Origin: Candidatus Omnitrophota bacterium
GTDB taxonomy: Bacteria > Omnitrophota > Gorgyraeia > Gygaellales > Profunditerraquicolaceae
Reading direction: 5' to 3'
NCBI GenBank assembly: GCA_041662125.1
Contig: JBAZTA010000002.1
Coordinates: 396,154-460,153, forward strand
DNA length: 64,000 nucleotides
Shown: positions 3,031 to 61,048 of the stretch, one piece after another
How positions within the stretch are numbered: position 1 is the stretch's first letter
How the letters are laid out: every line of letters starts with the position of its first letter
Notes under the pieces: model-generated
What the model was told of the DNA's origin: nothing
The model's input: only the letters and a program-made list of their open reading frames with translations
The model's database searches: none
Program-made: the position numbers and the translations under genes

Positions 3031-3034
3031 CTTG

Positions 3035-10587: not shown

Positions 10588-12780
10588 ATGAAACAGGTCT
10601 CCAGGGTTTCGCCAAAAGTTGCGGTGTTATTATTTAATACTGATGCGAAAAATGGGGTGTTTTGGGGGAACCTGTCTTTGTCTTTCTTTGCTGGACAGCT
10701 AAAATCGTTAAAGATTGACTACACGTTATTTGTTTTATTAATGAAACCGGCAGATATAAAGCAAAACCAGGAAACCATTAATAAATCTCTTAATCTTCTG
10801 GTGCGGGGAAAGTTTGATACTATCATCATGCATTCTTCATGGCTGCCGTGGCTGCCTCAAACGCTGCGTCAGAGAACGGGGGCTAAAGTTTTCTGCCTGG
10901 ATTATTCAGACAAACAGGATATCCCTGATCAGTTAAATCTTATGGGCTTGCCTCCGGTTCAAACAGTCCTGGCAGCTTTGTTGAATACAAAATTTGAGAG
11001 CATCCAAGAGGTTATAAAAAAATTTAAACGCCTCACAACGTTTAATCCTCAATTTAATTATACTTTCGTAGGCTTACCCCCGGGCAGTCAAACGCTGCCA
11101 AAACAGGAAAAAGTAGACGTTTCTCTTCGAGTTCCTTGTCCGTTCCATCAGGATGTTCGGCTTAATCCTCGGTTTAAAGGGATATGTTTTGACGAAGGGA
11201 TCAGTACGCAAGGTTGTTCTTATTGCGTCGCGGCAAAAGCATCGTTGAATCGCCCTATGGCAGAGGATAAGAAAAGAAAACAAATGGTTGAGCAGGTACG
11301 CTACCTGCAAAACCATCTTCCTTCCTTGAAAGAGATCGCAGTCGTTTATCCGGAGTTATATTTACGGGTGTTGCCCTGGATCATGCGCAATAGTAAAAGG
11401 TTGGGGATTAAACCGATTACTTTTTCCGGCCAATTCAGAGCTGCGGTATTAGCGCGGCATGAGTCGGATATCCGCGTATTGCTTAAGACAGCCCTTAAGA
11501 CCGGCTTTCGGTTTGAAATGTGCGTGGTTGGCTTGGAAAGTTTTTGCAACCAAGATTTGATGTTGTTTAACCGAGGTTCGGTCCGTGAAGTTAGACAGGC
11601 GGTTAAGGTCATTGAAAGGCTTCGGGACAGCTTTGATCCCGGTTTTTTTATGCCCGCCACCGTAGGAAGTTTTATCCTTTTTCATCCTTGGCAAACGGTT
11701 GCCGGTTTAAGGGAGAATATCCGTTCATTTTTGTCTGAGGGTATCCATGGTTTGTTCCCGAAATTAAACTTTAATGATATCCGCATCAATAAAGATGTGG
11801 CATTGTATAAATTGGCAGAAGCGCAAAATTGCCTTTCATCTCAGGCAGGGCGTAATATTAATGATATCCCTCTGGGGGGGTATTTTACTGAACATCCGTG
11901 GGTATTTAAAGATAAAAAAACAAAACACATCCATGCGCTTTATACCAGTCTTGCGCCTAAGGTCACGGAAAGAATAGGATTGCTTGAGGCTTTATGCGAT
12001 TATGCCGAGAAATCAAGACTTAATAGCGAATCCTCTGACGGGAAAAAGATCGTGCCTCTTTTGGAAGGCTTGTATAGTTTGTTATTACGCTATTACTGGC
12101 AGAAGGATTCTGAGGGAGTGCCGGTTTATGTTGGTGATACCTGTAATTCTTCCTGCCAATACTGTGTTTATGAGCATGCGCGGTTTATAAAAGGCAAACC
12201 TTTGGCTATAAAAAACGCACATGCTGCTTTTCTGAAAAATAAGCAAGTAGTGACGATCGCGGGGCGTGAACCTACGCTCCTGCCGTGGCTTATTCCGTTT
12301 ATCCGCGGGTTGAAAAAGAAAAACCCCCGGCGTATCCAGCTTGTTACTAACGCCAGAAGGTGTGTGTATCCTCACTATGCCGGATCTTTGCTCCGCGCGG
12401 GTGTTTCAGATTTTTTAATTAAATTTTTCTCCTGGCAGCCGAAGGTGCATGATCAGCTTACCCGCTGCCCGGGTTCTTTCCGTCAGTCAGTTGCTGGTAT
12501 CGGGGAATTGAAACGGTCGGCCCAAAGTTTGGCTATCCCTGTTCAAATCGCTCTTTTAGTTGTGGTTTCAGATGCAGTCATTAATGAATTACATGAAACA
12601 ATCCTTTTCGCGCAAAGAATAGGCGCTGATGAAGTGCGGTTTGTTTATCCCATGAGCGCGGTTAATCTTGCTGGTTTGAAAGATTCAGCACGAAAATTAG
12701 AAGCTATTTTAAGCCAGCGAAGGGACCCTCGTTTGTGCGTGGGCACTGATCCCCGGTTTAGTTTCTCTATGACTGTTTAG
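10588..12780 (+). CDS. Uncharacterised two-domain protein with C-terminal radical SAM domain
   Basis: C-terminal CNSSCQYC (CX3CX2C) motif followed by a GGEP-like TIAGREPTL. The N-terminal ~440 aa are cysteine-containing with no canonical motif. Own promoter upstream. Confidence 0.55.
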   Translation: MKQVSRVSPKVAVLLFNTDAKNGVFWGNLSLSFFAGQLKSLKIDYTLFVLLMKPADIKQNQETINKSLNLLVRGKFDTIIMHSSWLPWLPQTLRQRTGAKVFCLDYSDKQDIPDQLNLMGLPPVQTVLAALLNTKFESIQEVIKKFKRLTTFNPQFNYTFVGLPPGSQTLPKQEKVDVSLRVPCPFHQDVRLNPRFKGICFDEGISTQGCSYCVAAKASLNRPMAEDKKRKQMVEQVRYLQNHLPSLKEIAVVYPELYLRVLPWIMRNSKRLGIKPITFSGQFRAAVLARHESDIRVLLKTALKTGFRFEMCVVGLESFCNQDLMLFNRGSVREVRQAVKVIERLRDSFDPGFFMPATVGSFILFHPWQTVAGLRENIRSFLSEGIHGLFPKLNFNDIRINKDVALYKLAEAQNCLSSQAGRNINDIPLGGYFTEHPWVFKDKKTKHIHALYTSLAPKVTERIGLLEALCDYAEKSRLNSESSDGKKIVPLLEGLYSLLLRYYWQKDSEGVPVYVGDTCNSSCQYCVYEHARFIKGKPLAIKNAHAAFLKNKQVVTIAGREPTLLPWLIPFIRGLKKKNPRRIQLVTNARRCVYPHYAGSLLRAGVSDFLIKFFSWQPKVHDQLTRCPGSFRQSVAGIGELKRSAQSLAIPVQIALLVVVSDAVINELHETILFAQRIGADEVRFVYPMSAVNLAGLKDSARKLEAILSQRRDPRLCVGTDPRFSFSMTV

Positions 12781-12926: not shown

Positions 12927-12944
12927 TAGTGAAATAAATCACAA
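12927..12944 (+). promoter_or_regulatory. Candidate Rex operator upstream of rex paralog 2 / hydF / kinase operon
   Basis: TAGTGAAATAAATCACAA: one mismatch per half-site vs TTGTGAA-N4-TTCACAA. Immediately upstream of and overlapping the promoter -35 TTGACA (12950-12955); -10 is TATACT (12972-12977). Confidence 0.5.
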
Positions 12945-12949
12945 AAAAT

Positions 12950-12977
12950 TTGACACAACTCGAAAATATGTTATACT
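12950..12977 (+). promoter_or_regulatory. Sigma70-like promoter upstream of rex paralog 2
   Basis: TTGACA, 16-nt spacer, TATACT. Confidence 0.55.
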
Positions 12978-13007: not shown

Positions 13008-13643
13008 ATGATTACCAATAAGAATTGTATTATCCGGTTATCGCGGTATAAAAATGCTTTATATCGTCTCAGAACTCTTGGGTTTATTAAAGTATTTTCT
13101 GATAATTTAGCTGATGCCATTGGTGTGATGCCTTCTCAGGTCCGGAAAGATTTCTCGATATTCGGTATTTCCGGAAATAAGCGGGGAGGCTATCAGGTTG
13201 ATGAGCTTATTGAGAAACTCAATAATATCTTAGGTAAGAATGAGATCCAAAAAGTTGTTATTGTTGGGGCAGGCAATATCGGCACCGCGCTCATGAAATA
13301 CAAAGGCTTTGAAAAAGAGGGAATAAAGCTCATGGCGGTCTTTGATATCGATTCTTTGAAATTCAATAAAACCGTAGATGTTCCGGTATTGCCATTGGAG
13401 CAGCTCCCTGATTTTATAAAAAAGAATAAGATCAGAATAGGGATCATTGCGGTTCCTGATATCGCCGCGCAGCAGATACTTGATAGTATGGTTTCTGCGG
13501 GTATTAAGGGGATCTTGAATTTTGCCCCTATACGGTTGCGCGGCCCGGCGGATTGCGTGATCAATAACGTGAACCTGGAGTTGGAGTTGGAAAATGTTAT
13601 TTATTTCGTTAACACGCAGGAGAAAGCAAAGGTTGAGGAATAG
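13008..13643 (+). CDS. rex: Redox-sensing transcriptional repressor Rex (paralog 2)
   Basis: Same architecture as paralog 1 (SRYKNALYRL...DFSIFG...VVIVGAGNIGTALMKY). Own promoter and candidate Rex box upstream. Confidence 0.75.
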   Translation: MITNKNCIIRLSRYKNALYRLRTLGFIKVFSDNLADAIGVMPSQVRKDFSIFGISGNKRGGYQVDELIEKLNNILGKNEIQKVVIVGAGNIGTALMKYKGFEKEGIKLMAVFDIDSLKFNKTVDVPVLPLEQLPDFIKKNKIRIGIIAVPDIAAQQILDSMVSAGIKGILNFAPIRLRGPADCVINNVNLELELENVIYFVNTQEKAKVEE

Positions 13644-13645
13644 GT

Positions 13646-14878
13646 ATGAAGACGACGCCTAAGTCATTGCGTTTGCAGATCGGTTTGTTTGGCCGGACCA
13701 ATGTGGGAAAATCAAGTTTTTTGAATCTCATCGCCGGCCAGGACGTTGCGATCACATCTGCTGTCCCCGGCACAACGACTGACGTCGTGGAAAAGGCCAT
13801 GGAACTTCTACCGCTTGGGCCGGTCGTGTTCTTAGATACCGCAGGGATCGACGATGCTTCTGTGTTGGGTGACCTGCGCGTTAAAAAGTCCCGGAAAATA
13901 TTTGACCGCGCTGATGTTATTGTCTTAATAGCTGAACCTGATGTGTGGGGCGAGTTTGAAGATAAGATCTGGGATGAGGCAGGGAAACGCTCGATCCCGG
14001 TAATTATCGTGGTCAATAAAGCTGATGTGTTGGCGCCTGCAGAAGAGTTTATAGAAGCGCTGCGAAAGAAGACTGATAGATTCTTTCTGTGTTCTAGTAT
14101 CGATTCCGCCCACCGGGATACCTATGTATTTGCTTTGAAAAAGAATCTTATTGAGGTTTGTCCTGCTGATTTCCTGAATCCGCCTCCTTTATTAAAAGAC
14201 CTCCTGCCTTCATGCGGACTGGCAATAATGATCATTCCTATTGATAAGGAAGCTCCGAAAGGAAGGCTTATTTTACCTCAGGCTCAAGCGATACGGGATG
14301 CCTTAGACGGCGATGCGGCGGCGTTGATAGTTAAGGAAAAAGAATACGCCCATACCTTGAGAAATTTGAAGAATCCGCCTGATATCGTTATGTGTGATTC
14401 CCAGGTTGTTGAGAAAATGGTTGCCGATACACCCGCAGGTATCAAATGCACCACGTTTTCGATTTTGTTCGCGCGGAATAAAGGCGATTTATTGGAAATG
14501 GTGAAAGCGATATCGGCCATTGATACGTTAAAGCCGGGTGATAAAATATTAATTGCCGAATCCTGCAGCCATCATGCTATTGAAGATGATATCGGCAGGG
14601 TCAAAATCCCCCGCTGGCTGGAAAAATATTTAGGATTTAAGGTGCATATCGATGTGTGTTCAGGCAGGGATTATCCGGATAATCTCAAGGAGTATAAGCT
14701 TATCGTGCATTGCGGCGGCTGTATGCTGACGCGCAGGGAGATGCTTTTTCGGATCAATAAAGCAAAAGCGGAGAATGTTCCGATAACCAATTACGGTATT
14801 TGTATCGCGTTTTTACAGGGAGTATTAGTTCGGGTGTTATCGCCGTTTCCGGCGTGTTTAGAGGTATTGCGAAAATGA
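13646..14878 (+). CDS. hydF: [FeFe]-hydrogenase maturation GTPase HydF
   Basis: GRTNVGKSSF P-loop and TTTD G2 motif. C-terminal CSHH...HCGGC FeS-binding motif characteristic of HydF. Confidence 0.8.
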   Translation: MKTTPKSLRLQIGLFGRTNVGKSSFLNLIAGQDVAITSAVPGTTTDVVEKAMELLPLGPVVFLDTAGIDDASVLGDLRVKKSRKIFDRADVIVLIAEPDVWGEFEDKIWDEAGKRSIPVIIVVNKADVLAPAEEFIEALRKKTDRFFLCSSIDSAHRDTYVFALKKNLIEVCPADFLNPPPLLKDLLPSCGLAIMIIPIDKEAPKGRLILPQAQAIRDALDGDAAALIVKEKEYAHTLRNLKNPPDIVMCDSQVVEKMVADTPAGIKCTTFSILFARNKGDLLEMVKAISAIDTLKPGDKILIAESCSHHAIEDDIGRVKIPRWLEKYLGFKVHIDVCSGRDYPDNLKEYKLIVHCGGCMLTRREMLFRINKAKAENVPITNYGICIAFLQGVLVRVLSPFPACLEVLRK

Positions 14879-16713
14879 AGACTGAAACCTTGCAAAAGAA
14901 GATATTGTTCTCGTTTTTTCTCGTCATTGGAGTGATGGGGCTGTCTATCGCTATCCTGCGCACGTATGTCATCAAGGTAGATATTATTGACCGGGCGCAG
15001 ACCCAGGTCAAAAATGACCTAAAAGCAGCGCGGGAGGTTTTTGATAATGAGCTCGAAATGATGCAAAAGATGTTTAGCCTCCTGCCTTCGAATGACCATG
15101 TCATCGAATTAAGGGAAAAATTGGGGTTGGATTATTTACGCGTGGCAACGCTTGAAAATAAAACGCGCGTTTTAAGCAAGATCGCGCAGCTTGCGTTTTC
15201 CGGTAAGAGCCTGGGGGCAAGCCGTATTATTGATAAAGACGAGCTTTTGGAGATGGGGGAGGAATTCTATAAACGCTCGGAAATTGAAATACGCTTTACG
15301 CAGAAAGCTAAATCTACGACAAAGAAGATCCTGGATAAAGCAATGGTTTTAGAATACGCTATGCCTCTGGTTACTGAGCAAGGGCAGGTCAAAAGCGTCA
15401 TATATGGGGGGAAGATCATTAATCGCGATTTCGCGTTGGTCGATAGAATACGCGACCTGGTTTTTGAGAATAAGATCTATGATGCCAAGCCGCTGGGAAC
15501 CGTGACAATATTTCTTGATGACGTCCGCATTACCACGAATGTTTTAGACAGCCAAGGCAACCGTGCCATCGGTACGCGGGTTTCCGAGAGAGTCTATGAT
15601 ACGGTGGTCAAGAACGCCTTGACCTGGGTTGACCGGGCCTTTGTTGTGACGGACTGGTACCTTACCGCCTATGAGCCGATACGGGATGTCCAGGGCGCTA
15701 TTATCGGCATACTGTATGTTGGCATCCTGGAAAAGCCCTTTAGCGATATTACCAGAAATGTGCTTTTTGTGCTGGTGGCGATTGTTTCATTTTCTTCTAT
15801 CCTTGCGGCGATTTTAGGGTATGTCCTTGCGGCAACTATCACCAAGCCTTTGACGCAGATGCTTGAAGCGACTTCCCGGATATCGGGAGGCCATCTTGAG
15901 CACCGGGTAGAAAACAGGGCTTCGGTAAAAGAATTGGATGAATTGGCGCGGTCTTTTAATGAGATGGCAGCAAAGCTGCATGAACGCGATATGAGCCTGC
16001 AGGTGTCTAATGATAAACTGGCAGAGCTTAATAAAAGTTACCTTGATTTGATCGGTTTCGTCGCTCATGAGTTAAAGAACATATTGTCTTCTACCATCTT
16101 GAACGCTTATACCGTCAAGGACGGGTTCCTGGGAATGATCAATTTTAAACAGCGTAAAGCTCTTGACTCGGTAGCGCGCAACCTCGATTATTTTGCCTCT
16201 ACCATAAAGAATTTCTTAAACTTAAGCAGAATCGAGAAACATGAGTTGAGCTTGAACAGGTTAGAGTTATCAATAAAAGATGATATTCTTAGCCTCTCAC
16301 TTGAATCGTTCTTGCGCGAGGCAAATGAAAAGAATATCCGGATCATCAATTCCATCCCGGAAGGATTAAAGATAAAAGGTGACAGTGACCTGTTGCAGAT
16401 CGTCTTCAATAATCTTATCGCCAATGCCGTCAAATACGGCAGGCCGGGCGGGCAAATCATCCTGAGCGCACGTGAGTTACCGCAGAGTATTGAAATAGAA
16501 GTCTATAATGATGCCCGGCCTATTCAAGCGGAAGATATCAATAAACTGTTCCAGAAATTCTCTCGTTTGAGTTACGCCGAAAACAAAAAAGAGCGCGGCA
16601 CCGGGTTAGGGCTTTTTATTACTAAAGAGATCATTGAAAAACACGGCGGCAGGATCTGGGTTGAGCCGCGTTTGGAGGGTAACGCGTTTATATTCGGATT
16701 GATGAAAATTTAA
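14875..16713 (+). CDS. Sensor histidine kinase (two TM helices, periplasmic sensor domain, HAMP, HisKA, HATPase)
   Basis: ATG at 14875 overlaps the hydF stop (ATGA). TM1 and TM2 flank a ~260-aa extracytoplasmic domain. H-box VAHELKN. G-box GTGLGLFI. Confidence 0.75.
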   Translation: MKTETLQKKILFSFFLVIGVMGLSIAILRTYVIKVDIIDRAQTQVKNDLKAAREVFDNELEMMQKMFSLLPSNDHVIELREKLGLDYLRVATLENKTRVLSKIAQLAFSGKSLGASRIIDKDELLEMGEEFYKRSEIEIRFTQKAKSTTKKILDKAMVLEYAMPLVTEQGQVKSVIYGGKIINRDFALVDRIRDLVFENKIYDAKPLGTVTIFLDDVRITTNVLDSQGNRAIGTRVSERVYDTVVKNALTWVDRAFVVTDWYLTAYEPIRDVQGAIIGILYVGILEKPFSDITRNVLFVLVAIVSFSSILAAILGYVLAATITKPLTQMLEATSRISGGHLEHRVENRASVKELDELARSFNEMAAKLHERDMSLQVSNDKLAELNKSYLDLIGFVAHELKNILSSTILNAYTVKDGFLGMINFKQRKALDSVARNLDYFASTIKNFLNLSRIEKHELSLNRLELSIKDDILSLSLESFLREANEKNIRIINSIPEGLKIKGDSDLLQIVFNNLIANAVKYGRPGGQIILSARELPQSIEIEVYNDARPIQAEDINKLFQKFSRLSYAENKKERGTGLGLFITKEIIEKHGGRIWVEPRLEGNAFIFGLMKI

Positions 16714-16731
16714 GCTGAAAACAGCTGGATT

Positions 16732-16806
16732 CCACCCCGCGCTCATTGCACCCCAGCCTAATTGGAGTGGCTGGGTACGCCGCCTTCTGCGGCGGTATTG
16801 CGCGGG
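16732..16806 (+). repeat. Conserved intergenic element family A, copy 2 (upstream of hndB)
   Basis: See copy 1. Followed by a GC hairpin (TGCGCC/GGCGCA) abutting the hndB RBS. Confidence 0.7.
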
Positions 16807-16837
16807 TATGCGCCTTTCTGGCGCAAGGAGAATAACT

Positions 16838-17197
16838 ATGTCTGCTACACCACTTGAGATAATTAAAAAGAAACGGGCGGAAGCGCTCAATAGAATTGTC
16901 GGGAAAGGATATTTGTCCACGAAGCGGGTTTATGTGGGCATGGCGACCTGTGAGATAGCAGCCGGTTCAAAAGAAGTTATGGATGTTTTTAATGCTGCGA
17001 TCAAGAACGGTTTGACGGATGTCTATTTGACACAAAAGGGGTGCGCCGGAAGATGTAATTTGGAGCCGACGGTTGAGGTGATCGAAGAAGGAAAGATCCC
17101 GGTTAAATACGGCAAGATAACACAGGAAAAAGCGCTTGAAATCATCGAGCGCCATCTTAAAAAAGGGGAAGTCATTAAAGAATGGCTGATTAAGTAA
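16838..17197 (+). CDS. HndB-like small thioredoxin-fold [2Fe-2S] ferredoxin subunit of NADH-linked [FeFe] hydrogenase
   Basis: ~120 aa with conserved Cys residues (ATCE, KGCAGRC). Sits directly upstream of the NuoF-like subunit. ATG at 16838 has the AAGGAG RBS. Confidence 0.55.
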   Translation: MSATPLEIIKKKRAEALNRIVGKGYLSTKRVYVGMATCEIAAGSKEVMDVFNAAIKNGLTDVYLTQKGCAGRCNLEPTVEVIEEGKIPVKYGKITQEKALEIIERHLKKGEVIKEWLIK

Positions 17198-17254
17198 CCC
17201 CTCGACCGAGCTCGGGGTGAATGAGGCATAAGCGCCAGAGGCATGCCTCATTCA
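17195..17254 (+). repeat. Two-hairpin element family C, copy 1 (between hndB and hndC)
   Basis: TAACCCCTCGACCGAGCTCGGGGTGAATGAGGCATAAGCGCCAGAGGCATGCCTCATTCA. 12-bp stem TGAATGAGGCAT/ATGCCTCATTCA with 13-nt loop. ~85% identical to 60982-61040. Confidence 0.65.
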
Positions 17255-17290
17255 AAGTCAAAAGGCAAAAGAGACGAAAGGTATAAGACA

Positions 17291-19078
17291 ATGAAACGCT
17301 ACACGATTACTTTATGCGACGGGCCCAGCTGTATGCACAAAAAATCAAAGGACCTGCAGGAAGCCATTGAGCGTGAGCTGGAAAAACACGGTATTTTAGA
17401 TAAGGTCAGCATCAATCTCTCCGGCTGCCTGGGGATGTGTCCCAAGGGACCGGTTATGATCATAAATCCGGGGTATACCATATACGGGAAAGTAAGTGTC
17501 GCCGACATTCCCCTGATCATTGAAGGGCATTTGCTGAAGAATAAACCGCTTGCTTCCCTGGTTATCGATGAAGACCATCTTTATAACCGTTTCTTTCGGG
17601 TATTCGGGGATATTAATTTTTTTGGTAAACAGATGAGGATCGCCTTGCGTAACTGCGGTATCATCGACCCTGAGAGTATTGATGATTATCTTTCTGTCAG
17701 AGGCTATGAAGCCCTGGCAAAAGTGTTGACTGACAGTAAACCTCTTGAAGTTATCGCGGAAGTCAAAAAATCAGGGCTGCGGGGCAGGGGCGGGGCTGGT
17801 TTCCCAACGGGACTTAAGTGGGATTTGACGGCGCGGGAAAAAAGCGATGAAAGATACGTCATCTGCAACGCTGATGAGGGGGACCCGGGAGCGTTCATGG
17901 ACCGCAGTATGATCGAGGGAGACCCGCATACTATTATCGAGGGGATGATCATCGGCGGTTACGCCATAGGTTCCGGCAAGGGTATTGTTTATATCAGGGC
18001 TGAATATCCGTTGGCGATCAAACGGTTGGAGAAGGCTATTGAGGTTGCCCGCCGGGAAGGGTTTTTAGGAGAGAATATTTTAGGTTCCGGTTTTTCGTTC
18101 GATATTGAAATACGCCTGGGCGCGGGCGCATTTGTCTGCGGTGAGGAAACAGCGCTCATACATTCAGTTGAAGGCCACCGTGGTATGCCCCGTCCGCGTC
18201 CGCCTTATCCGTCGGTCAGCGGCCTCTTTGGTAAACCTACCGTCATCAATAATGTGGAAACCTGGGCCAATATCCCGGTCATCATACTCGATGGAGCTTC
18301 CTGGTTTAGTTCAATAGGCACAGAAAAAAGTAAAGGCAGTAAAGTCTTTGCCCTCGCCGGTAAGATCAAGAATACCGGGCTTGTTGAGGTGCCGATGGGC
18401 ACGACGCTTCGCCAGATCATTTATGATATTGGCGGAGGTGTCCCGAATAATAAAAAATTCAAAGCCGTTCAGACCGGGGGCCCTTCAGGCGGATGTATCC
18501 CGGAGGAATACCTCGATACCAAGATCGATTATGAATCGCTCTTACAGGTAGGCTCTATCATGGGATCAGGCGGCATGATCGTTATCGATGAAGAATCATG
18601 CATGGTCAATATCGCCAAGTTTTTCCTTGAATTTACCCAGAATGAGTCCTGCGGGAAATGCACTCCCTGCAGGGAAGGCACTAAGCGCATGCTTGAGATC
18701 TTGACCCGTATTACCAAAGGCCACGGCGTTCCTGAAGATATCGAAAAATTGGAGCGATTAGGCACTATGATCAAGAAAGCGTCTCTGTGTGGTTTAGGGC
18801 AGTCAGCTCCGAATCCGGTCTTAAGCACGCTGCGCCATTTTCGCAAGGAATATGAGGACCATATCCATTCAAAACATTGTGTCGCCGGGGTTTGCCAGGC
18901 GATGTTAGTTTATGAGATCCTTGACACCTGTGTCGGCTGTACTGTTTGTAAGAAAAACTGCCCTGTTTCAGCGATTAGCGGCAGTCCTAAACTCAAGCAT
19001 GAGATCATTCAGGAGAAGTGTATTAAATGCGGATTATGTTTTAAAGTATGTAAATTTAACGCTGTTAAAAAAAGCTAA
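17291..19078 (+). CDS. NuoF-like flavoprotein subunit of [FeFe] hydrogenase (HndC/HydB)
   Basis: N-terminal thioredoxin-like 2Fe-2S domain. NuoF core (GLRGRGGAGFPTGLKW). SLBB domain. Two C-terminal 4Fe-4S motifs (CVGCTVCKKNCP, CIKCGLCFKVC). Confidence 0.8.
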   Translation: MKRYTITLCDGPSCMHKKSKDLQEAIERELEKHGILDKVSINLSGCLGMCPKGPVMIINPGYTIYGKVSVADIPLIIEGHLLKNKPLASLVIDEDHLYNRFFRVFGDINFFGKQMRIALRNCGIIDPESIDDYLSVRGYEALAKVLTDSKPLEVIAEVKKSGLRGRGGAGFPTGLKWDLTAREKSDERYVICNADEGDPGAFMDRSMIEGDPHTIIEGMIIGGYAIGSGKGIVYIRAEYPLAIKRLEKAIEVARREGFLGENILGSGFSFDIEIRLGAGAFVCGEETALIHSVEGHRGMPRPRPPYPSVSGLFGKPTVINNVETWANIPVIILDGASWFSSIGTEKSKGSKVFALAGKIKNTGLVEVPMGTTLRQIIYDIGGGVPNNKKFKAVQTGGPSGGCIPEEYLDTKIDYESLLQVGSIMGSGGMIVIDEESCMVNIAKFFLEFTQNESCGKCTPCREGTKRMLEILTRITKGHGVPEDIEKLERLGTMIKKASLCGLGQSAPNPVLSTLRHFRKEYEDHIHSKHCVAGVCQAMLVYEILDTCVGCTVCKKNCPVSAISGSPKLKHEIIQEKCIKCGLCFKVCKFNAVKKS

Positions 19079-19131
19079 CCCCTCTGTGTCTGCCAGGACG
19101 GGTGTTTGCCGAATGAAGGAGCCAAGAAATA

Positions 19132-20904
19132 ATGGAAAAGATAACCATTTATATTAACGCTAAACCCTATGCGGTTGAACCGGATCAAACGATCATGCAG
19201 GCGGCTGATAAGCTGGGGTTTAGAATCCCGCGGCTTTGTTATCATCCGCGGCTTTCTATTGAAGGAGCCTGCCGCGTTTGCATCGTGGAAGTTGAGGGGA
19301 TGCGTAATTACGTAGCCAGCTGTGCGTTTCCTGTCAGTGAGGGGATAAAGATCCATACTGATTCTCAGGAGATCCGTCGGGCGCGCAGGGATATCGTGGA
19401 GTTGATCCTGGATAACCATCCTGATGACTGCCATACCTGCGAGCGGGATAGTATTTGCGAACTCCAGCGCTTGGCGTATTCGATGGGGATCCGTAACCGG
19501 CATTTTAAAGGTGAGAAGAAACAGTATGAAAAAGATATTTCATCGGCTTCAGTTGTTCGCGACCCGAATAAATGTATTCTTTGCGGCAGGTGCGTTAGGA
19601 TTTGTTCTGAGGTGCAAAAGGCACATACTCTGGGGCAGGCTTACCGCGGGTTTAAGACCGTTGTCATGCCTGCATATGATATGCCTTTTAAAGAGAGTGT
19701 CTGTACTAACTGCGGGCAGTGTATTAACGTTTGCCCCACGGCGGCATTTGTCGAGAAAAACCATACCCAGGAAGTATTCTCGAAATTAGATGATAAGTCG
19801 ATCATTAAAGTCGCTCAAGTCGCTCCATCGGTGCGCGCGGCGATAGGCGAAGCTTTCGGGATCGAAGCGGGAAGGTCAATGGAACATGAATTAGTTGCCG
19901 CGCTTAAGCGCCTGGGGTTTGATTATGTTTTTGATACGCAGTTTTCAGCTGACTTGACGATCATGGAAGAGGCAAGTGAATTCCTGGAAAGAGTCCAGGG
20001 TAAGGGCAAGCTGCCGATGATCACTTCTTGTTCAAGCGCCTGGATGAAATGCCTGGAACAATTTTATCCTGATCTGATCGATAATGTTTCGACCTGTAAA
20101 TCTCCCATGTCAATGATGGGGGCTCTGATTAAGACGTACTTCGCGCAGAAAATCAAACAAGATCCAAAGAATATCCTGAATGTTGCGATCATGTGCTGTA
20201 CTGCCAAAAAATATGAAGCGGCGCGGCCGGAACTGATGGTTGACGGTATGCCGGGGACCGATATGGTGGTAACGACTAGAGAAATGGCCTGGATGATCAA
20301 GTCAGCCGGGATAGATCTCCTGCGTATCAAGGGCGAGAATTTTGATGAGCCTCTTGGGCTTTCTTCGGGTGCGGGCACTATTTTTGGCGCTACCGGCGGC
20401 GTCATGGAAGCCGCGATCAGGACTGCCTATGAATTGTATACGGGTGAAACGCTGCTTGATATTGAGATCAGCGATTTGCGCGGGTTAAAGGGGATTAAGG
20501 AAGGTAAAATCGTCTTAGACGGTAAGGAGATACGGGTTGCTGTTGCGCATGGCCTGGGGAATGCCTGTGACCTGCTTGACGTTGTCCGTCACGACCCCGA
20601 TAAATACCATTTTATCGAGATCATGGGGTGCCCCGGCGGATGTATCGGCGGAGGCGGCCAGCCGTATGCGGGTATTAATTCAATTCCTTTGGATGAAGAG
20701 TGCCTGAATAAAAGAGCTGAAGCGCTCTACAACATTGACCGGAATAAAACGATCCGCAGAAGCCATGAAAATCCTGATGTGCAGAGGATCTATAAAGAGT
20801 TTCTGGGCAGGCCGTTGAGCGCCCAGTCGCATAAACTTTTGCATACGCATTATAAAGCGAAAGAGCCTCAAGGCATAATCCCGAGAGAATTTACGGTTAA
20901 ATAA
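19132..20904 (+). CDS. hydA: [FeFe] hydrogenase catalytic subunit (HydA/HndD) with non-canonical H-cluster motifs
   Basis: NuoG-like N-terminal 2Fe-2S and 4Fe-4S domains. H-cluster L3 motif EIMGCPGGCIGGGGQP is canonical. L1 reads TSCSSAW (canonical TSCCPxW). L2 reads MCCTAKKYE (canonical MPCxxKxxE). Confidence 0.8.
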   Translation: MEKITIYINAKPYAVEPDQTIMQAADKLGFRIPRLCYHPRLSIEGACRVCIVEVEGMRNYVASCAFPVSEGIKIHTDSQEIRRARRDIVELILDNHPDDCHTCERDSICELQRLAYSMGIRNRHFKGEKKQYEKDISSASVVRDPNKCILCGRCVRICSEVQKAHTLGQAYRGFKTVVMPAYDMPFKESVCTNCGQCINVCPTAAFVEKNHTQEVFSKLDDKSIIKVAQVAPSVRAAIGEAFGIEAGRSMEHELVAALKRLGFDYVFDTQFSADLTIMEEASEFLERVQGKGKLPMITSCSSAWMKCLEQFYPDLIDNVSTCKSPMSMMGALIKTYFAQKIKQDPKNILNVAIMCCTAKKYEAARPELMVDGMPGTDMVVTTREMAWMIKSAGIDLLRIKGENFDEPLGLSSGAGTIFGATGGVMEAAIRTAYELYTGETLLDIEISDLRGLKGIKEGKIVLDGKEIRVAVAHGLGNACDLLDVVRHDPDKYHFIEIMGCPGGCIGGGGQPYAGINSIPLDEECLNKRAEALYNIDRNKTIRRSHENPDVQRIYKEFLGRPLSAQSHKLLHTHYKAKEPQGIIPREFTVK

Positions 20905-20917
20905 CGGAGGTAATGAT

Positions 20918-21418
20918 ATGTGTTCTGCCAATAACGGGAAACAGCTTGCATTAAGGGCATTTATGGATAACTGTAAAGAAAAAGCGCATCCTGAATCAAA
21001 CCTGATCTCCATATTGCACAAAGCGCAGGAATTGTATGGATATTTAAGTAAGGAAGTCATGGATGATGTGGCGACGCGGATGAATATTCCGACTGCCCAT
21101 ATTTGGGGAGTGGCGACATTTTACCATTATTTTAATCTTAAACCTAAAGGCAAGCATACGGTTTCCATTTGTTTGGGGACTGCTTGTTATGTAAAAGGCG
21201 CTGACCAGATTTTGGACGCGATCAGGGAGGAGTTAATGATCGATGTCGGCCAGACGAGTGAGGATGATTTATTTACCTTGCAGGAAGCCCGTTGTTTGGG
21301 GACCTGCGGGCTTGCCCCGGTGGTCATGATCGATGAAAAGATCTACGGTAACCTGACACCTAAGAAAACTATAGAGATATTGCAGGGATATAAAAAGGCC
21401 GCGGGAAAGTATGATTAA
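20918..21418 (+). CDS. NuoE-like [2Fe-2S] subunit of [FeFe] hydrogenase (HndA/HydC)
   Basis: CLGTACYVKG...CLGTCGLAP Cys pattern of the NuoE thioredoxin-like ferredoxin. GGAGG RBS. Confidence 0.75.
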   Translation: MCSANNGKQLALRAFMDNCKEKAHPESNLISILHKAQELYGYLSKEVMDDVATRMNIPTAHIWGVATFYHYFNLKPKGKHTVSICLGTACYVKGADQILDAIREELMIDVGQTSEDDLFTLQEARCLGTCGLAPVVMIDEKIYGNLTPKKTIEILQGYKKAAGKYD

Positions 21419-22472
21419 AACCGAAACAATATTACAGAGGATTTATAAAGCCGAAGACCCTCGCGCGGCGGATATCGAGTATTTATTATCGCGGGAATCT
21501 TCTGATGAGGTGGGGATGATCTTTCGTTTTGCCGACTCGGTTCGCCGTGCCCACGCAGGAGACGGGATCCTCGCGCGCGGGATTATTGAGTTTTCCAACT
21601 ATTGCGCGAATTCTTGCGCTTATTGCGGGCTTAACAGGAATAACAAAAGTTTAAAACGGTACCGGCTCAGCCATGATGAGATCTTCAAAAGTATTCTTAA
21701 GATGGTTTCCTTAGGGATAAAGACCGTGGTCTTGCAGTCAGGAGAAGATTTTAGTATGGAAGCACTCCTTTTAAAAGAAACTATTGAGGAGATAAAGGCG
21801 CGTTTTGATGTTGCTCTTACGCTTTCTGTTGGAGAAAGAAGTGCCCGCGATTACCGCCTCTGGCGTAAGGCAGGCGCGGACCGGTATTTGCTTAAGATCG
21901 AGACAACGAATCGAAGATTGTATGAATCGCTTCATGCGGGGATGAGTTTTCAGCAGAGGATAAACTGCCTCAAGGCGCTTCAGGATCTCGGCTATCAAAC
22001 CGGTTCAGGAGTAATCGTTGGTTTAAAGGGCCAGACACTCCGCATGCTCGCCGAGGATATCGTGTTTTTCAAGAAAAACAATTTTGATATGATCGGGATC
22101 GGCCCGTTTATTCCGCATCCGGCTACTAAACTCAAAAACCAGGCGCAGGCAGATGTGAGCCTGACGTTGAAAACACTGGCGCTTACCAGGATCGTTACTA
22201 AAAATGCGCATCTTCCCGCGACAACAGCGTTAGGCAGTATCGGGAAGAGGGATTTTAAGATCGACGGGCTTCGCGCGGGGGCAAACGTGATCATGCTTAA
22301 TTTTACTCCTCCAGAATACAGCAGATTATATGAAATATATCCCGGTAAAGGCAATCACGACGGATTGATCGCGTCATACGAATCGTATATGCGAGGCTTG
22401 AGCGAGGCTACGGGCAGGCCATTTGATTTCGCCCGGGGAGATTCTCTGGTGCAGGTGACCGACAACCGATAA
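21411..22472 (+). CDS. hydE: HydE-family radical SAM maturase (second paralog, no HypC-like extension)
   Basis: IIEFSNYCANSCAYCGLNRNNKSLKRYR matches the HydE radical-SAM region. LQSGED and GPFIPHPATKL motifs present. Closes the structural operon. Confidence 0.75.
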   Translation: MIKTETILQRIYKAEDPRAADIEYLLSRESSDEVGMIFRFADSVRRAHAGDGILARGIIEFSNYCANSCAYCGLNRNNKSLKRYRLSHDEIFKSILKMVSLGIKTVVLQSGEDFSMEALLLKETIEEIKARFDVALTLSVGERSARDYRLWRKAGADRYLLKIETTNRRLYESLHAGMSFQQRINCLKALQDLGYQTGSGVIVGLKGQTLRMLAEDIVFFKKNNFDMIGIGPFIPHPATKLKNQAQADVSLTLKTLALTRIVTKNAHLPATTALGSIGKRDFKIDGLRAGANVIMLNFTPPEYSRLYEIYPGKGNHDGLIASYESYMRGLSEATGRPFDFARGDSLVQVTDNR

Positions 22473-22478
22473 CCGTAA

Positions 22479-22551
22479 CACCCGGCGCTAATTGCACCCA
22501 TCCTCATTGGTGTGGCTGGGTACGCCGCTTGCTGCGGCGGTATTGCGCTGG
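22479..22551 (+). repeat. Conserved intergenic element family A, copy 3 (downstream of hydE2, upstream of the response regulator)
   Basis: See copy 1. Followed by a variable hairpin (CTCGCC/GGCGAG) and the response-regulator promoter. Confidence 0.7.
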
Positions 22552-22625
22552 TGAGCCGTTTTCTACTGCAGGAAGCAGACACTCGCCTTTCCAATTAAGG
22601 CGAGGTGTGCGGCACATTATTTCTA

Positions 22626-22653
22626 TTGAGTTAAAAAATAAGTTTGTTATAAT
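22626..22653 (+). promoter_or_regulatory. Sigma70-like promoter upstream of the response-regulator gene
   Basis: TTGAGT, 16-nt spacer, TATAAT, about 25 nt upstream of the AAAGGAGG RBS. Confidence 0.5.
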
Positions 22654-22678
22654 AAATACCAACAAAGGAGGAAATACG

Positions 22679-23065
22679 ATGTCCAAGAAAATACTTATTA
22701 TTGATGATGATGCTGATTTTGTAGAAGCGATTACTACCTTGCTGGATGCCAAAGGTTATGAGGTGACTTCTGCTCCTGACGGGGAAGAAGGGTTTAAGAA
22801 GGCAAAGTCAAGTGTCCCGAACCTGATCTTACTTGATGTCATGATGGCGACAAAGACGCAAGGCTTCGATATTGCGGTAAATCTCAAGAAAGAAGCAAAA
22901 ACAAAAGATGTGCCTGTGGTTATGATCACCGGTATTAAGCGTGACATGAACCTTCCTTTTGGTTTTGAGCCTGATGAAGACTGGCTGCCGGTTAAAGCTG
23001 TTTTAGAAAAACCGGTAAAGCCTGAGGTGTTGTTAAAGGCTGTTGAGGAACATATTAAAAAATAA
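22679..23065 (+). CDS. Single-domain response regulator (CheY-like receiver)
   Basis: ILIIDDD acidic pocket, phospho-acceptor D in LILLDVMM, and a conserved K. No output domain. ATG at 22679 with AAAGGAGG RBS. The track start 22529 lies inside the upstream repeat. Confidence 0.7.
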   Translation: MSKKILIIDDDADFVEAITTLLDAKGYEVTSAPDGEEGFKKAKSSVPNLILLDVMMATKTQGFDIAVNLKKEAKTKDVPVVMITGIKRDMNLPFGFEPDEDWLPVKAVLEKPVKPEVLLKAVEEHIKK

Positions 23066-23094
23066 AATAGTATTAGTATAGGGTATAAGATCAG

Positions 23095-23131
23095 AGGGCA
23101 GTGTTATTAATTCCATAACACTGCCCTTTTT
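23095..23131 (+). terminator. Rho-independent terminator after the response-regulator gene
   Basis: Perfect 13-bp stem AGGGCAGTGTTAT/ATAACACTGCCCT, 7-nt loop, then TTTTT. Confidence 0.8.
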
Positions 23132-23150
23132 GCCGGTGATCGGTTATCGT

Positions 23151-23239
23151 AAGACCGGGTCTTGGACGGTTGATTAACTTACCCCCCGGCCTTAAAGGAT
23201 ATGCCGGGGGTGCGGCTTTCTGCCGCAAGACCCGGTCTT
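23151..23239. repeat. REP-like palindromic element cluster (upstream of the PIF1-like helicase)
   Basis: Perfect 13-bp palindromes AAGACCGGGTCTT (23151-23163) and AAGACCCGGTCTT (23227-23239). Between them lies the GC hairpin CCCCGGC/GCCGGGG. The motif CGGGGGTGCGGCTTTCTGCCGCAAGACC is shared with 29785-29815. Confidence 0.7.
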
Positions 23240-23266
23240 GAAATGGAATAAAACCCGAGTGAGCTC

Positions 23267-24835
23267 ATGAAGCCAAAAACTATAGAGATCAACGAGCAAT
23301 TCAAGAAAGCCTTGGATGTAATAGAAAATACCTCAAAGAACGTTTTTGTTACCGGAAAAGCAGGAACCGGTAAATCAACGCTCTTGGAGTATTTTCGTTC
23401 CAAAACTAAAAAGAAAATCGCGGTATTGGCTCCTACCGGTGTAGCCGCCTTGAATGTGCGTGGAGAAACCATCCATTCTTTCTTTAGGTTTAAGCCAAAT
23501 ATCACGCTTGAGAAAATAAAAAAGATTAAAGGAAAGCGCGCGCGGATATTCAAGGAAATAGAGGCGATTGTCATTGATGAAATATCCATGGTGCGCGCTG
23601 ATCTGCTGGACTGTATAGAGAGATTCTTGCGTTTAAATGGAAAGAATTCAGGTATGCTTTTTGGCGGCATTCAGATGATCTTTATCGGGGACCTCTATCA
23701 ATTGCCTCCGGTAGTTACCTTACGGGAAAAGCATATATTCAGCCAGTATTATCAAAGCCCGTATTTTTTCTCTGCGCGTTTATTTGAAGAACTTGAAATG
23801 GAATTTATCGAGCTCGAGAAGATTTACCGTCAGAAGGATGAGGATTTCATAGGTTTGCTTAATGCTATCCGTAACAACAGTATTACGGATGAAATGCTGG
23901 AGATGCTCAATACGCGCGCTCAGCCATGTATGGATGATCGCCGTGAAGCGTTTACCTTGCACTTAACCACGACCAATCAAATGGCTGCCCGGATTAATAA
24001 CTACCACTTACAGCAGCTTAGGTCAAAAATATTCACCTATCAGGCAGAAATGTCTGGTGATTTCCAAGAACATACCTGTCCTGCTGATGCTCAATTACAG
24101 GTTGCGGTCGGGGCTCAGGTGATGTTATTGAATAATGATTCTGAGGATAGGTGGGTCAATGGTTCCATCGCGGAAGTTAAGGAAATAAAGCATGATAAGA
24201 AAAATGATACCGATGTGATTTATGTCCGGATGCAGGATGGTTCTCTGGAAGAAGTCTTGCCGCATAGCTGGGAATTATTCCATTATCGTTTTAACGAAGA
24301 CACCTTTTCCATAGAAACAGAATCAGCCGGCTCATTCACGCAATATCCGCTTAAGTTGGCGTGGGCAATTACTATTCATAAGAGCCAGGGTAAGACTTTT
24401 GAGAGGGTAGTTATCGATATGGGAAACGGCGCGTTTGCCAATGGTCAAACCTATGTTGCCTTAAGCAGGTGCACTTCTTTGGACGGCATTATACTTAAAC
24501 GTTCGATCAGAAAATCAGATATCCGCATGGATTGGAATATCGCGGAATTCCTGACGAAATACCAGTATGCGTTGTCCCAACGAGACTTGCCGCTTGAGGA
24601 CAAAGTGGATTTGATCGAACAGGCGATTAAGAACGATTGTCACCTTGCCATTGTATATCTTAAAGCCAGTGATGAGAAAACGCGCAGGGTAATTAAGCCT
24701 CTTGGTGTTGGCAAGAAAGAGTATCGGGGAGAAACCTTTATCGGCGTAGATGCGTATTGCCTCAAGCGTGGGGAAGAACGGGTTTTTCGGGTGGACTGGA
24801 TGCTGGAGATAAAGCTAGCCGATGTTCCCCACTAA
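23267..24835 (+). CDS. PIF1/RecD-like superfamily 1 helicase with uncharacterised C-terminal extension
   Basis: Walker A VFVTGKAGTGKST. PIF1-type motifs (IDEISMV, ITIHKSQGKTFERVVI). ~120-aa C-terminal region of unknown function. Confidence 0.7.
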   Translation: MKPKTIEINEQFKKALDVIENTSKNVFVTGKAGTGKSTLLEYFRSKTKKKIAVLAPTGVAALNVRGETIHSFFRFKPNITLEKIKKIKGKRARIFKEIEAIVIDEISMVRADLLDCIERFLRLNGKNSGMLFGGIQMIFIGDLYQLPPVVTLREKHIFSQYYQSPYFFSARLFEELEMEFIELEKIYRQKDEDFIGLLNAIRNNSITDEMLEMLNTRAQPCMDDRREAFTLHLTTTNQMAARINNYHLQQLRSKIFTYQAEMSGDFQEHTCPADAQLQVAVGAQVMLLNNDSEDRWVNGSIAEVKEIKHDKKNDTDVIYVRMQDGSLEEVLPHSWELFHYRFNEDTFSIETESAGSFTQYPLKLAWAITIHKSQGKTFERVVIDMGNGAFANGQTYVALSRCTSLDGIILKRSIRKSDIRMDWNIAEFLTKYQYALSQRDLPLEDKVDLIEQAIKNDCHLAIVYLKASDEKTRRVIKPLGVGKKEYRGETFIGVDAYCLKRGEERVFRVDWMLEIKLADVPH

Positions 24836-24883
24836 GACCGGGACTTGGCAAGTTGTTTTAAAATGTTGATAAGTCCCGGTCTT
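24834..24883. repeat. REP-like inverted repeat (immediately downstream of the PIF1-like helicase stop codon)
   Basis: AAGACCGGGACTT ... AAGTCCCGGTCTT, a 13-bp inverted pair around a 24-nt AT-rich spacer. Near-identical unit at 29809-29858. Confidence 0.7.
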
Positions 24884-24911
24884 AAAACAACAGGCTGCGG
24901 CACAAATTTTC

Positions 24912-24939
24912 TTGACAAGAAGTAGGGGAGTGATAAAAT
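24912..24939 (+). promoter_or_regulatory. Sigma70-like promoter upstream of the hypA-like / [NiFe] hydrogenase operon
   Basis: TTGACA (24912-24917), 16-nt spacer, TAAAAT (24934-24939). Confidence 0.55.
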
Positions 24940-24958: not shown

Positions 24959-24976
24959 TTGTGATAAATTTCACAA
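24959..24976 (+). promoter_or_regulatory. Near-consensus Rex operator upstream of the [NiFe] hydrogenase operon
   Basis: TTGTGATAAATTTCACAA: perfect right half-site TTCACAA and a single mismatch in the left half-site (TTGTGAT) vs TTGTGAA-N4-TTCACAA. About 20 nt downstream of the -10. Confidence 0.6.
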
Positions 24977-29259: not shown

Positions 29260-29722
29260 AAAAAGAGCTGTTATAGGTTTAGGGAATACGTTGAGGAGAG
29301 ACGATGGGATCGGTATTCTGGTTCTTGAATCTCTCTTCGCTGTTTATAAGCGCCAGAATATCGATTACCTGGATTTTGGGACCGCCAGTTTCGATCTTCT
29401 CTTTAAGTTTCAGGAGTATTCGCAAGTCCTTTTGATCGATGCCATTGATGCCGGCCTTGCGCCGGGGGAGCTGGCTATTTTTGACTTGAGCCAAATGCGC
29501 GCCGATGAACTACCTATGGTTATTTCTTCGCATGAGCTTAACCTGAAAAGTATTTTTGAACTCGCCAGGAAATTTGAGGTTAAAGCAAAGATCTATGTCG
29601 CCGGCATTCAGGTCCAGGATGTGGCTCATGGGGAAGGTTTGAGCCTTAAGCTTGCAGATAGAAAAGAAGCGATCGTAAGCGAGATCAGCGAGTTTATCGA
29701 TAAAAAGTTTGTGAATGCATAG
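29252..29722 (+). CDS. Hydrogenase maturation endopeptidase (HycI/HoxW family)
   Basis: GLGNTLRRDDGIG signature of the hydrogenase C-terminal processing protease. Length 156 aa. Confidence 0.7.
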   Translation: MSKKRAVIGLGNTLRRDDGIGILVLESLFAVYKRQNIDYLDFGTASFDLLFKFQEYSQVLLIDAIDAGLAPGELAIFDLSQMRADELPMVISSHELNLKSIFELARKFEVKAKIYVAGIQVQDVAHGEGLSLKLADRKEAIVSEISEFIDKKFVNA

Positions 29723-29729
29723 TTTATTT

Positions 29730-29858: not shown

Positions 29859-30004
29859 GACTAATTAAGTTTTTTTTACTATAATAAGTATAAGTAGTTT
29901 TCTTTCTTACAATCCCGTTTAAAAAAGCAGTATTTAGTTCTTATCCGAGAAGCCGGCTATGGCTTATGGGGTAACCTCCTATGTATCTGCCTTTTCCTTG
30001 AGAT

Positions 30005-61040: not shown

Positions 61041-61048
61041 ATTTTAGA

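Follow-up and report, generated by a model that had tools for sequence, protein, structure and literature searches.

Why should two copies of one conserved element of about 75 nt, here called Repeat A, stand on either side of the structural genes of an [FeFe] hydrogenase, and do they mark the ends of something? The locus that raises this question lies in a stretch of 64,000 nt (the window) of contig JBAZTA010000002.1, from a genome deposited as Candidatus Omnitrophota bacterium (assembly GCA_041662125.1, positions 396,154 to 460,153 of the forward strand). A sequence-only reading of this DNA had taken the two copies to delimit the genes from hndB to hydE2 as a unit, within a regulated and possibly horizontally mobile module flanked by a sensor kinase and a receiver. 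Our analysis leads elsewhere: Repeat A is neither a cassette boundary nor a dedicated regulator of the hydrogenase, and the bracketing of the hyd genes is a by-product of two occupied spacers, such as are found at many other places in these genomes. Repeat A is probably a module of a lineage-specific mosaic of nested intergenic palindromic repeats, resembling the repetitive extragenic palindromic (REP) sequences and bacterial interspersed mosaic elements (BIME), which entered the operon secondarily and has a REP-like role there. That it is a dispersed repeat is, taken alone, close to certain; a specific role at the RNA level, argued by analogy, is put forward tentatively.

A repeat search of the window identified three copies, all on the plus strand and about 73 nt long each, and the pattern of a 37-nt core matches the window exactly three times (0.00 expected from 100 shuffles). 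The element is built from a closing stem P1 (CACCCSGCGC/GCGCSGGTG), which encloses the hairpins P2 (CCCAGCC-TAATTGGTGT-GGCTGGG) and P3 (GCCGC-TTTCT-GCGGC); when the copies are read together with their flanks, a further hairpin, P4, directly follows on the 3' side in about 20 of 24. A filter-free search of the window with a covariance model recovered three full copies (104-106 bits, E~1e-23) and two further pieces, listed here together with the P4 of copy 2:

2955-3027, plus strand: Repeat A copy 1, a P1-P2-P3 three-way junction flanked by the genes for a DUF1573 protein and an M48 peptidase
16734-16806, plus strand: Repeat A copy 2, intercistronic, in the spacer between the kinase gene and hndB
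16809-16825, plus strand: P4 hairpin of copy 2, UGCGCC-UUUCU-GGCGCA, directly 3' of that copy
22479-22551, plus strand: Repeat A copy 3, 6 nt past the hydE2 stop (22472)
22547-22624, minus strand: Repeat A, diverged and inverted, adjoining copy 3 (22.9 bits, E 0.002-0.007)
23185-23227, plus strand: partial Repeat A mosaic, a P2-like hairpin and a hairpin with GC stem and TTTCT loop, in the spacer between the receiver and helicase genes

Copies 2 and 3 are thus located immediately upstream of hndB and immediately downstream of hydE2, as had been read from the sequence. Copy 2 starts 20 nt past the kinase stop (16713) and ends 31 nt short of the hndB ATG (16838), and its P4 abuts the Shine-Dalgarno sequence of hndB, AGGAG (16826-16830). 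The inverted partner of copy 3 has retained the P2 loop TTAATTGG on compensatorily altered stems and is followed, read on the plus strand, by a U-rich tail, and the partial mosaic is nested between AAGACCSGGTCTT palindromes. Copy 1 is followed on its 3' side by a second type of hairpin (3028-3053) and then by a terminator-like hairpin; the M48 peptidase gene beyond it heads a rex1-nfnAB-like-hydG-hydE1 cluster.

Several aspects of the element point to a maintained secondary structure. The stem of P4 differs between copies with full compensation (GCGCC/GGCGC, GCGGC/GCCGC, GCTGC/GCAGC, GTTGC/GCAAC, ACGGC/GCCGT, TTTGC/GCAAA, TTGTCC/GGACAA), and its loop TTTCT is constant and identical to the loop of P3. 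Single-sequence folds of the three window copies are 2.3-3.3 standard deviations more stable than those of shuffled sequences; the predicted fold of copy 2 with P4 reaches -52.9 kcal/mol (z -3.5), and copy 3, folded jointly with the inverted copy beside it, reaches -62 kcal/mol (z -3.5). In an alignment that unites 35 matches, some from the window and the others from related DNA, pairing extends to 96% of cells as against 32-46% in slid controls, and double-sided changes are present at 16 of the 20 pairs compared with 1-6 pairs in the controls, figures that lean towards structure because the alignment was fitted to the covariance model. The clearest covarying position of P1 is CG in eight, GC in seven, GU in two and UA in one. 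No Rfam family matches any part of the 64-kb window at the gathering threshold, and E-value scans of 16690-16850 and 22440-23270 yielded only matches at chance level (E>1). Hammerhead, twister and pistol ribozymes, retron non-coding RNA and tRNA-like elements were excluded by the junction sequence, by the Rfam result and by the absence of reverse transcriptase and integrase genes. An integron attC site was rejected as well: core sites (RYYYAAC/GTTRRRY) are absent, P1 is without AAC/GTT cores and no integrase is found in the neighbourhood.

How far the family extends was examined with the pattern ATTGGNNTGGCTGGGTAC (18 specified bases) over 185,579 species genomes, one per species, followed by nhmmer. 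The pattern is permissive and gave mostly chance matches in unrelated phyla, with real copies at no fewer than 11 loci; among the matches listed, true copies occur only in two metagenome-assembled genomes, JBAZKL01 and CAZPNW01. A stricter pattern run over 241 million metagenome records found 20 stretches, which come from the same few samples, and no match was present in plasmid, phage or viral-contig collections. The family is therefore confined to a narrow clade consisting of the window's genome, JBAZKL01, CAZPNW01 and a few metagenome contigs. The homologues of HndB carry the names Anaerohalosphaeraceae, Sedimentisphaerales, Planctomycetes and "Omnitrophica", and place the window's genome among Phycisphaerae-like Planctomycetota. 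JBAZKL01 itself follows the gene order of the window, with a nucleotide identity of 82-86% (L006, L012, L016, L030, L056), and bears the label 'Candidatus Omnitrophota bacterium SO_2017_LW4_142'. The proteins with which its HndB groups are named Planctomycetes, Anaerohalosphaeraceae or Sedimentisphaerales, and the phylum labels of the metagenome-assembled genomes thus disagree. A literature search for such repeats in Planctomycetes found nothing relevant.

Within this clade the element is dispersed without regard to hydrogenase genes. JBAZKL01 has nine strict copies (strict P2 matches) on three scaffolds totalling 1.95 Mb, to which looser copies, stubs and lone hairpins add more. Repeat A was found at more than 20 unrelated loci of the sister genomes, in both orientations and with no relation to hyd genes, which is the observation on which the sequence-only reading had itself let its boundary stand or fall. 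A census drew on three genomes or metagenomes and comprised 23 non-redundant intergenic sites; judged from open reading frames, about 15 copies are co-oriented with their neighbours, 4-5 are antisense to both and 3 stand between convergent genes. Antisense copies include those of L016, L017 and L024, the first two being flanked by genes with Pfam support. The neighbours include genes for ComEC and a BamD-like lipoprotein, two GalT paralogues, an ABC-F ATPase, a NuoB-like protein, PanB and a class II aminoacyl-tRNA synthetase, a CBS protein and a T2SSE ATPase, a patatin-like lipase, CTP synthase and a DAO oxidoreductase, MTHFR, LptF/G and Alr (alanine racemase), PGK, an L,D-transpeptidase and a PAP2 protein, an endonuclease III-like protein and a polysaccharide deacetylase. 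Several co-oriented copies elsewhere are followed by promoter-like TTGACA...TATAAT sites (by eye) and therefore lie in the 3' region of the upstream gene. The picture seen at the hyd operon is even repeated at an unrelated gene: two direct copies in CAZPNW01 (L017, 3005-3087 and 5706-5788) bracket a single ABC-F ATPase gene, which is encoded on the opposite strand.

The units of gain and loss are whole hairpins, and further modules are nested in the loops of others. Stubs, lone TTTCT hairpins and full elements form arrays (L012, L030, L129, L136), and hairpins with a GC stem and a TTTCT loop number 25 in 220 kb of ingroup DNA compared with one, the chance level, in 110 kb of outgroup DNA. Copy 1 and the hairpin on its 3' side recur together in JBAZKL01 (L129), with 88% identity over 108 nt; orthology of the two sites was excluded, as the flanking proteins are unrelated, and it follows that element and hairpin have been dispersed as a composite. 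A separate module of 46 nt, TCCAGMAAGGRCGCACCCAGCATTCC..NNNN..GCTGGGGTGCTG, was observed immediately after TTTCTG in a P3 or P4 loop at three non-orthologous sites, and its placement suggests loop-targeted insertion:

L001, 7157-7202: 46-nt module in the P3 loop
L124, ~10780-10830: 46-nt module in the P4 loop
L131, ~2090-2140: 46-nt module in the P4 loop

The operon itself was compared among relatives with and without the element. Six outgroup loci (L002, L003, L140, L141, L142, L143) have the gene order rex-kinase (Cache/HAMP)-hndB-hndC-hydA-hndA-(hydG-hydE-hydF)-single-domain receiver, with a short kinase in L003 and with the sequence of L140 ending before the receiver. At all six the kinase gene abuts hndB or overlaps it by 0-7 nt, leaving no element in the spacer, and a filter-free model search of three of them (L002, L003, L140) found no Repeat A; L138 and L139, which were searched alongside, are ingroup contigs carrying a copy without P3. 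L140, with an HndB 89% identical to that of the window, shares a still longer order, rex1-nfnAB-hydG-hydE1-epimerase-rex2-hydF-kinase-hndB-hndC-hydA-hndA. Since outgroups have the same order and no element, the repeats came after the operon: the block from kinase to receiver is ancestral, vertically inherited and compact in the outgroups, and the repeats entered it later. In L002, L003, L141, L142 and L143 the hyd genes stand between orthologues of the two signalling proteins (outgroup and window proteins are 49% identical for the kinase and 55-60% for the receivers). Kinase and receiver are conserved partners of the hydrogenase, and this synteny supports the view that they may form a cognate two-component pair.

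Inside the clade the spacer between the kinase gene and hndB was found in four states in four genomes:

Window: full element
L001 (HndB 94% identical): full element, its P3 loop enlarged by a 46-nt insert
CAZPNW01 (L123/L138): P1 and P2 without P3, P1 being compensatorily CCCACGC/GCGTGGG
JBAZKL01 (L056): a stub of P1 only, CACCCGGCGC-TCATAGGTATT-GCGCCGGTG

P4 abuts the Shine-Dalgarno sequence in all four. In the hyd operon of JBAZKL01 a full element is located in the hndB/hndC spacer instead (L056), a spacer that is occupied by an unrelated repeat in the window and by a long palindrome of CGGTTNN heptamers in L001, and L001 has in addition a minus-strand stub in its hndA/hydE spacer. The hyd operon has thus been colonised in at least four different spacers across the four genomes. 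With other spacers occupied in other genomes, and relatives running the same operon without the element, Repeat A does not delimit hndB-hydE2 as a unit.

These observations bear directly on the other explanations that can be offered for the locus. If copies 2 and 3 were the ends of a horizontally mobile hydrogenase cassette, whether as recombination or att-like sites or as remnants of insertion, the two direct copies around hndB-hydE2 would be accounted for, and likewise those around the ABC-F gene of CAZPNW01. The same block, however, stands between kinase and receiver in six outgroups that have no repeats, and in JBAZKL01 a full copy is located inside it. Base composition is flat across the window (GC 0.43-0.48), the plasmid, phage and viral collections gave no match, attC-type core sites are missing, and no integrase or transposase adjoins the block, the next gene encoding a PIF1/WYL helicase. 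We therefore regard a cassette as extremely improbable, and the horizontal mobility proposed from the sequence alone is not supported. It is very unlikely, too, that we are dealing with small RNA genes in their own right, or with intrinsic terminators of the ordinary kind, which resemble each other by chance. Many copies do occur at gene 3' ends, and the inverted partner of copy 3 has its U-rich tail, but full copies have no U-tract, copy 2 stands within the operon with a start codon 31 nt further on, promoter-like sites are absent ahead of the copies, and neither ~95% identity between genomes nor nested modules would be expected of unrelated terminators.

A dedicated cis-regulatory RNA, a riboswitch or a binding site for an RNA-binding protein, deserves more attention. 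It would serve hndB-hydE, the receiver gene and the M48-rex1-nfnAB-hydG cluster as a small redox/H2 regulon, and it would explain why three sense copies lie within 20 kb of H2-metabolism genes, why the three-way junction shows covariation and constant loops, why the kinase/hndB spacer has kept the element in four genomes with a compensatory change in P1, why P4 adjoins the Shine-Dalgarno sequence in each of them, and why sense orientation prevails. Against this, most copies in the sister genomes adjoin unrelated housekeeping genes; some are antisense to both neighbours (L016, L017) or stand between convergent genes, several are upstream of promoter-like sites and hence in 3' regions, and the element matches nothing in Rfam. 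P3, or P2 and P3 together, have been lost at the orthologous site while the operon stayed, and the outgroups run the same operon without Repeat A. A consistent sense 5' leader of functionally related genes, as expected of a riboswitch, was not found, and we consider such a regulator quite unlikely. A hitherto undescribed system of Planctomycetota, in which the modules are anything but inert and small palindromes are inserted specifically into the loops of hairpins already present, is unlikely as well. Some dedicated protein would here recognise the loops UUUCU and UAAUUGG, which stay constant while their stems covary freely; a single-strand transposase directed at hairpins is one candidate, an RNA-binding protein governing the segmental stability of mRNA another. 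If the hyd operon, presumed to be strongly expressed, were a preferred or selected target, its colonisation time and again in four genomes would be accounted for. Examples of the insertions that such a system would produce are the 46-nt module within TTTCTG loops and the P2-P3 unit inside the loop of a stub.

We return to the mosaic of REP-like repeats as the preferred explanation. Accordingly pictured, Repeat A units would be non-autonomous palindromic units that are spread or maintained at the DNA level. Between genomes the copies are ~95% identical, compared with 82-86% for the flanking coding DNA, as would be expected if a master sequence were under constraint, in the manner of REPIN populations (PMC3116915, PMC3337134). 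An effect on the transcript is proposed as well. All genes of the window are on the plus strand and no promoter-like site was found between the kinase gene and hndB; the operon mRNA should consequently carry copy 2 internally and end with copy 3. Copies transcribed in sense, as all three in the window would be, could fold into very stable RNA structures and act as REP sequences do, as barriers to exonucleases or as 3'-end or processing structures. Copy 2 may in this way uncouple a regulatory part expressed at a low level (rex2-hydF-kinase) from an abundant structural part (hndB-hydE), and copy 3, with its inverted partner and the U-rich tail, may close the transcript ahead of the receiver's own promoter. 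The likeliest effect, by analogy, is segmental stabilisation of the mRNA together with formation of its 3' end. A weak version of the delimiting idea thereby survives at the RNA level, as a side effect of a general repeat.

A number of points weigh against this explanation. No clean target-site duplication was recognised among 17 copies, and no transposase among the 30 flanking proteins scanned. Constant loops on a freely covarying P4 stem resemble a recognised RNA or DNA hairpin rather than plain copy-and-paste DNA, and the mismatches (nine G-U against four A-C) are too few to separate constraint at the RNA level from constraint at the DNA level. The orientation is biased towards the sense strand, roughly 15 to 5, and for a REP family the copy number is low (~9 strict copies in the 1.95 Mb of JBAZKL01). 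All three full copies of the window fall into 20 kb of H2-metabolism genes, and its other 41 kb has none; such a density, above the JBAZKL01 average of roughly one copy in 200 kb, may be a sign of some local function. The role in the mRNA, finally, is carried over from REP elements.

Target-site duplications are difficult to call in this DNA. Direct repeats of 7 bp flank two copies (CCGAGCA in L056, CCGATAA in L119), but they are equally well explained by arrays of the heptamer CCGANNA, and flanking repeats of at least 5 bp were present at 2 of the 17 copies compared with 0.9 in mispaired controls, the arrays confounding such calls. These tandem arrays (CCGANNA, inverse TNNTCGG/CGGTTNN) flank many Repeat A copies and can form long imperfect palindromes:

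Window, 22456-22478: heptamer array, which makes up the last 20 nt of the hydE2 coding sequence
L056, 3960-4010 and 3845-3865: heptamer arrays
L001, 7630-7710: heptamer array
L119, L120, L124, L131: heptamer arrays in the flanks of the copies

Two further repeat families were observed in the window. Members of the second (17210-17255 and 60996-61041, 89% identical) consist of a short hairpin followed by a hairpin of 12 bp, differ by two compensatory changes (TGAATGAGGCAT/ATGCCTCATTCA compared with TGAATAAGCCAT/ATGGCTTATTCA) and have fold z values of -4.2 and -4.4; the copy at 17210-17255 fills the hndB/hndC spacer. The third is built on the palindrome AAGACCSGGTCTT (24834-24887, 29809-29862 and 61049-61102; also 23144-23160, 23228-23240 and 29720-29780), often with two arms around an AT-rich spacer in the manner of a terminator and with compensatory changes between copies. 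Its arms enclose other modules in the receiver/helicase spacer, where a terminator (23096-23135) is followed by a mosaic of repeat modules.

Compared with known systems, Repeat A belongs with the intergenic palindromic mosaic repeats, among which it forms a new family restricted to one lineage. It shares with the REP/BIME sequences of Enterobacteria and Pseudomonas the GC-rich, imperfect extragenic palindromes at dispersed, unrelated loci, the occurrence in both orientations, the mosaics and tandem arrays with other short motifs, the frequent position at gene 3' ends or between cistrons, a conservation above that of neighbouring DNA and the restriction to a lineage. Stabilisation of mRNA and segmental decay are known roles of these sequences. 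They differ in that the unit of Repeat A is a three-way junction of ~75-95 nt with an extra hairpin rather than a single hairpin of 20-40 nt, that it occurs about 5 times per Mb rather than hundreds of times per genome, that its modules are nested in hairpin loops and that its host is a lineage of Planctomycetota. General features of REP sequences and REPINs have been described (PMC3116915, PMC3337134), and the REPIN-RAYT system in particular consists of non-autonomous palindromic repeats, inherited vertically in a narrow lineage, with a conserved 'master' sequence (PMC3116915, PMC3337134). Repeat A has in common with it the non-autonomous palindromes of a narrow lineage and the conserved master sequence, and the GTAC by the P2 hairpin (complementary strand; junction GGGTAC) recalls the GTAG/GTGG by REP hairpins. 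The tetranucleotide is nevertheless GTAC and not GTAG/GTGG, and an inverted doublet was seen only once (copy 3 with 22547-22624). No RAYT gene turned up in ~220 kb of ingroup DNA, which was not scanned for it systematically. Correia elements (NEMIS/CREE) and miniature inverted-repeat transposable elements are units of about 100 nt with terminal inverted repeats, located in spacers, co-transcribed, and forming hairpins that alter the processing or stability of mRNA. Repeat A is a spacer unit on the same scale of ~100 nt, with P1 as a terminal inverted repeat of 9-10 bp, but no consistent target-site duplication was recognised, a P1 of this length falls well short of their terminal inverted repeats, and there is no known insertion sequence as its parent.

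The genes of the operon and their presumed control sites are as follows.

12927-12977, plus strand: Rex-box-like site TAGTGAAATAAATCACAA and overlapping promoter-like site upstream of rex2 (consensus matches)
13008-13643, plus strand: rex2, Rex redox repressor family (Pfam)
13646-14878, plus strand: hydF, maturase GTPase (Pfam)
14875-16713, plus strand: sensor histidine kinase with sCache_3_3, HAMP, HisKA and HATPase_c domains (Pfam)
16838-17197, plus strand: hndB-like 2Fe-2S protein (no Pfam match; homologues named HndB or (2Fe-2S) ferredoxin)
17291-19078, plus strand: hndC, NuoF-like flavoprotein subunit (Pfam, NCBIfam)
19132-20904, plus strand: hydA, 'NADH-dependent [FeFe] hydrogenase, group A6' (NF040763, 830 bits against a cut-off of 765)
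20918-21418, plus strand: hndA, NuoE-like subunit (Pfam, NCBIfam)
21411-22472, plus strand: hydE2, radical SAM maturase (308 bits against a cut-off of 254.6)
22626-22653, plus strand: promoter-like site TTGAGT-16-TATAAT, TG-extended, before the receiver gene
22679-23065, plus strand: single-domain response-regulator receiver (Pfam; orthologue of the receiver with which the hyd cluster closes in relatives)
4141-4158, 12927-12944 and 24959-24976: Rex-operator-like sites (TTGTGAAnnnnTTCACAA, 1-2 mismatches) before rex1, rex2 and the gene at 25247

The kinase gene starts at 14800 in the list of open reading frames; its alignment to orthologues begins at M26, hence the start at 14875. The gene names given from the sequence (rex2, hydF, kinase, hndB, hndC, hydA, hndA, hydE2 and receiver) proved right by Pfam and NCBIfam, and for hndB by the names of its homologues, and HydE, HydF and HydG all score above their cut-offs. 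A group A HydA, a NuoF-like and a NuoE-like subunit in one operon are the mark of an NADH-dependent, bifurcating-type [FeFe] hydrogenase (HydABC/Hnd), and by its gene content the operon is of this type.

Upstream of rex2 the Rex-box-like site (12927-12944) is followed by a promoter-like TTGACA-16-TATACT (12950-12977), and this region is a probable operon promoter. The search for Rex boxes with a 4-nt spacer gave plausible sites whose total count is not above chance, and with a 6-nt spacer only chance matches. Even so, the Rex-box-like sites together with the conserved kinase and receiver lend support to regulation, and of the regulated, mobile module that had been proposed this is the half that stands, rex, kinase and receiver being conserved with the hydrogenase in six relatives. 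Rex-controlled HydABC/Hnd operons elsewhere share with this one the group A6 HydA, the NuoF-like, NuoE-like and HndB-like proteins, HydE, HydF and HydG, a Rex gene and Rex-box-like sites. Kinase-like genes are also found inside HydABC/Hnd-type operons of Firmicutes and Thermotogae; the arrangement here differs in having a full membrane Cache/HAMP kinase before the structural genes and a single-domain receiver, which is without an output domain, after them, both conserved in the clade.

Some further features of the neighbourhood were recorded. The product of the gene at 8365-9543 is another HydE-like radical SAM protein, the first along the window (265 bits, cut-off 254.6), and has an N-terminal HypC/HupF-like domain (residues 1-76), a fusion that is also present in the relative L140; the window accordingly has two HydE paralogues. 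Between the epimerase gene and rex2 lies a gene (10588-12780) for a radical SAM protein of 730 amino acids with weak HxsC-like matches, which is present in L001 and absent from the otherwise collinear L140, and thus represents a clade-specific insertion in the H2 gene neighbourhood. The next gene after the receiver (23267-24835) encodes a PIF1-like helicase with a C-terminal WYL domain, and the Rex-like site at 24959-24976 comes directly after a strong promoter-like site (24912-24939).

What do these results mean for the organisms that carry Repeat A? Two repeat copies flanking an operon are not evidence of a mobile cassette, and here the check in sister genomes settled the question; other DNA of this clade will show the same elements, which should not be read as riboswitches or as cassette ends. 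The conserved arrangement of rex, Cache kinase, hydrogenase and receiver suggests that in these anaerobes a signal from the periplasm or from outside the cell is linked to an NADH-dependent hydrogenase in the cytoplasm. The nested, structured intergenic repeats were acquired by one narrow and uncultured lineage of Phycisphaerae-like bacteria and are absent from its nearest relatives, and the four states of the kinase/hndB spacer provide a natural series in which the growth of such a repeat, its decay and its effect on the expression of the operon can be followed.

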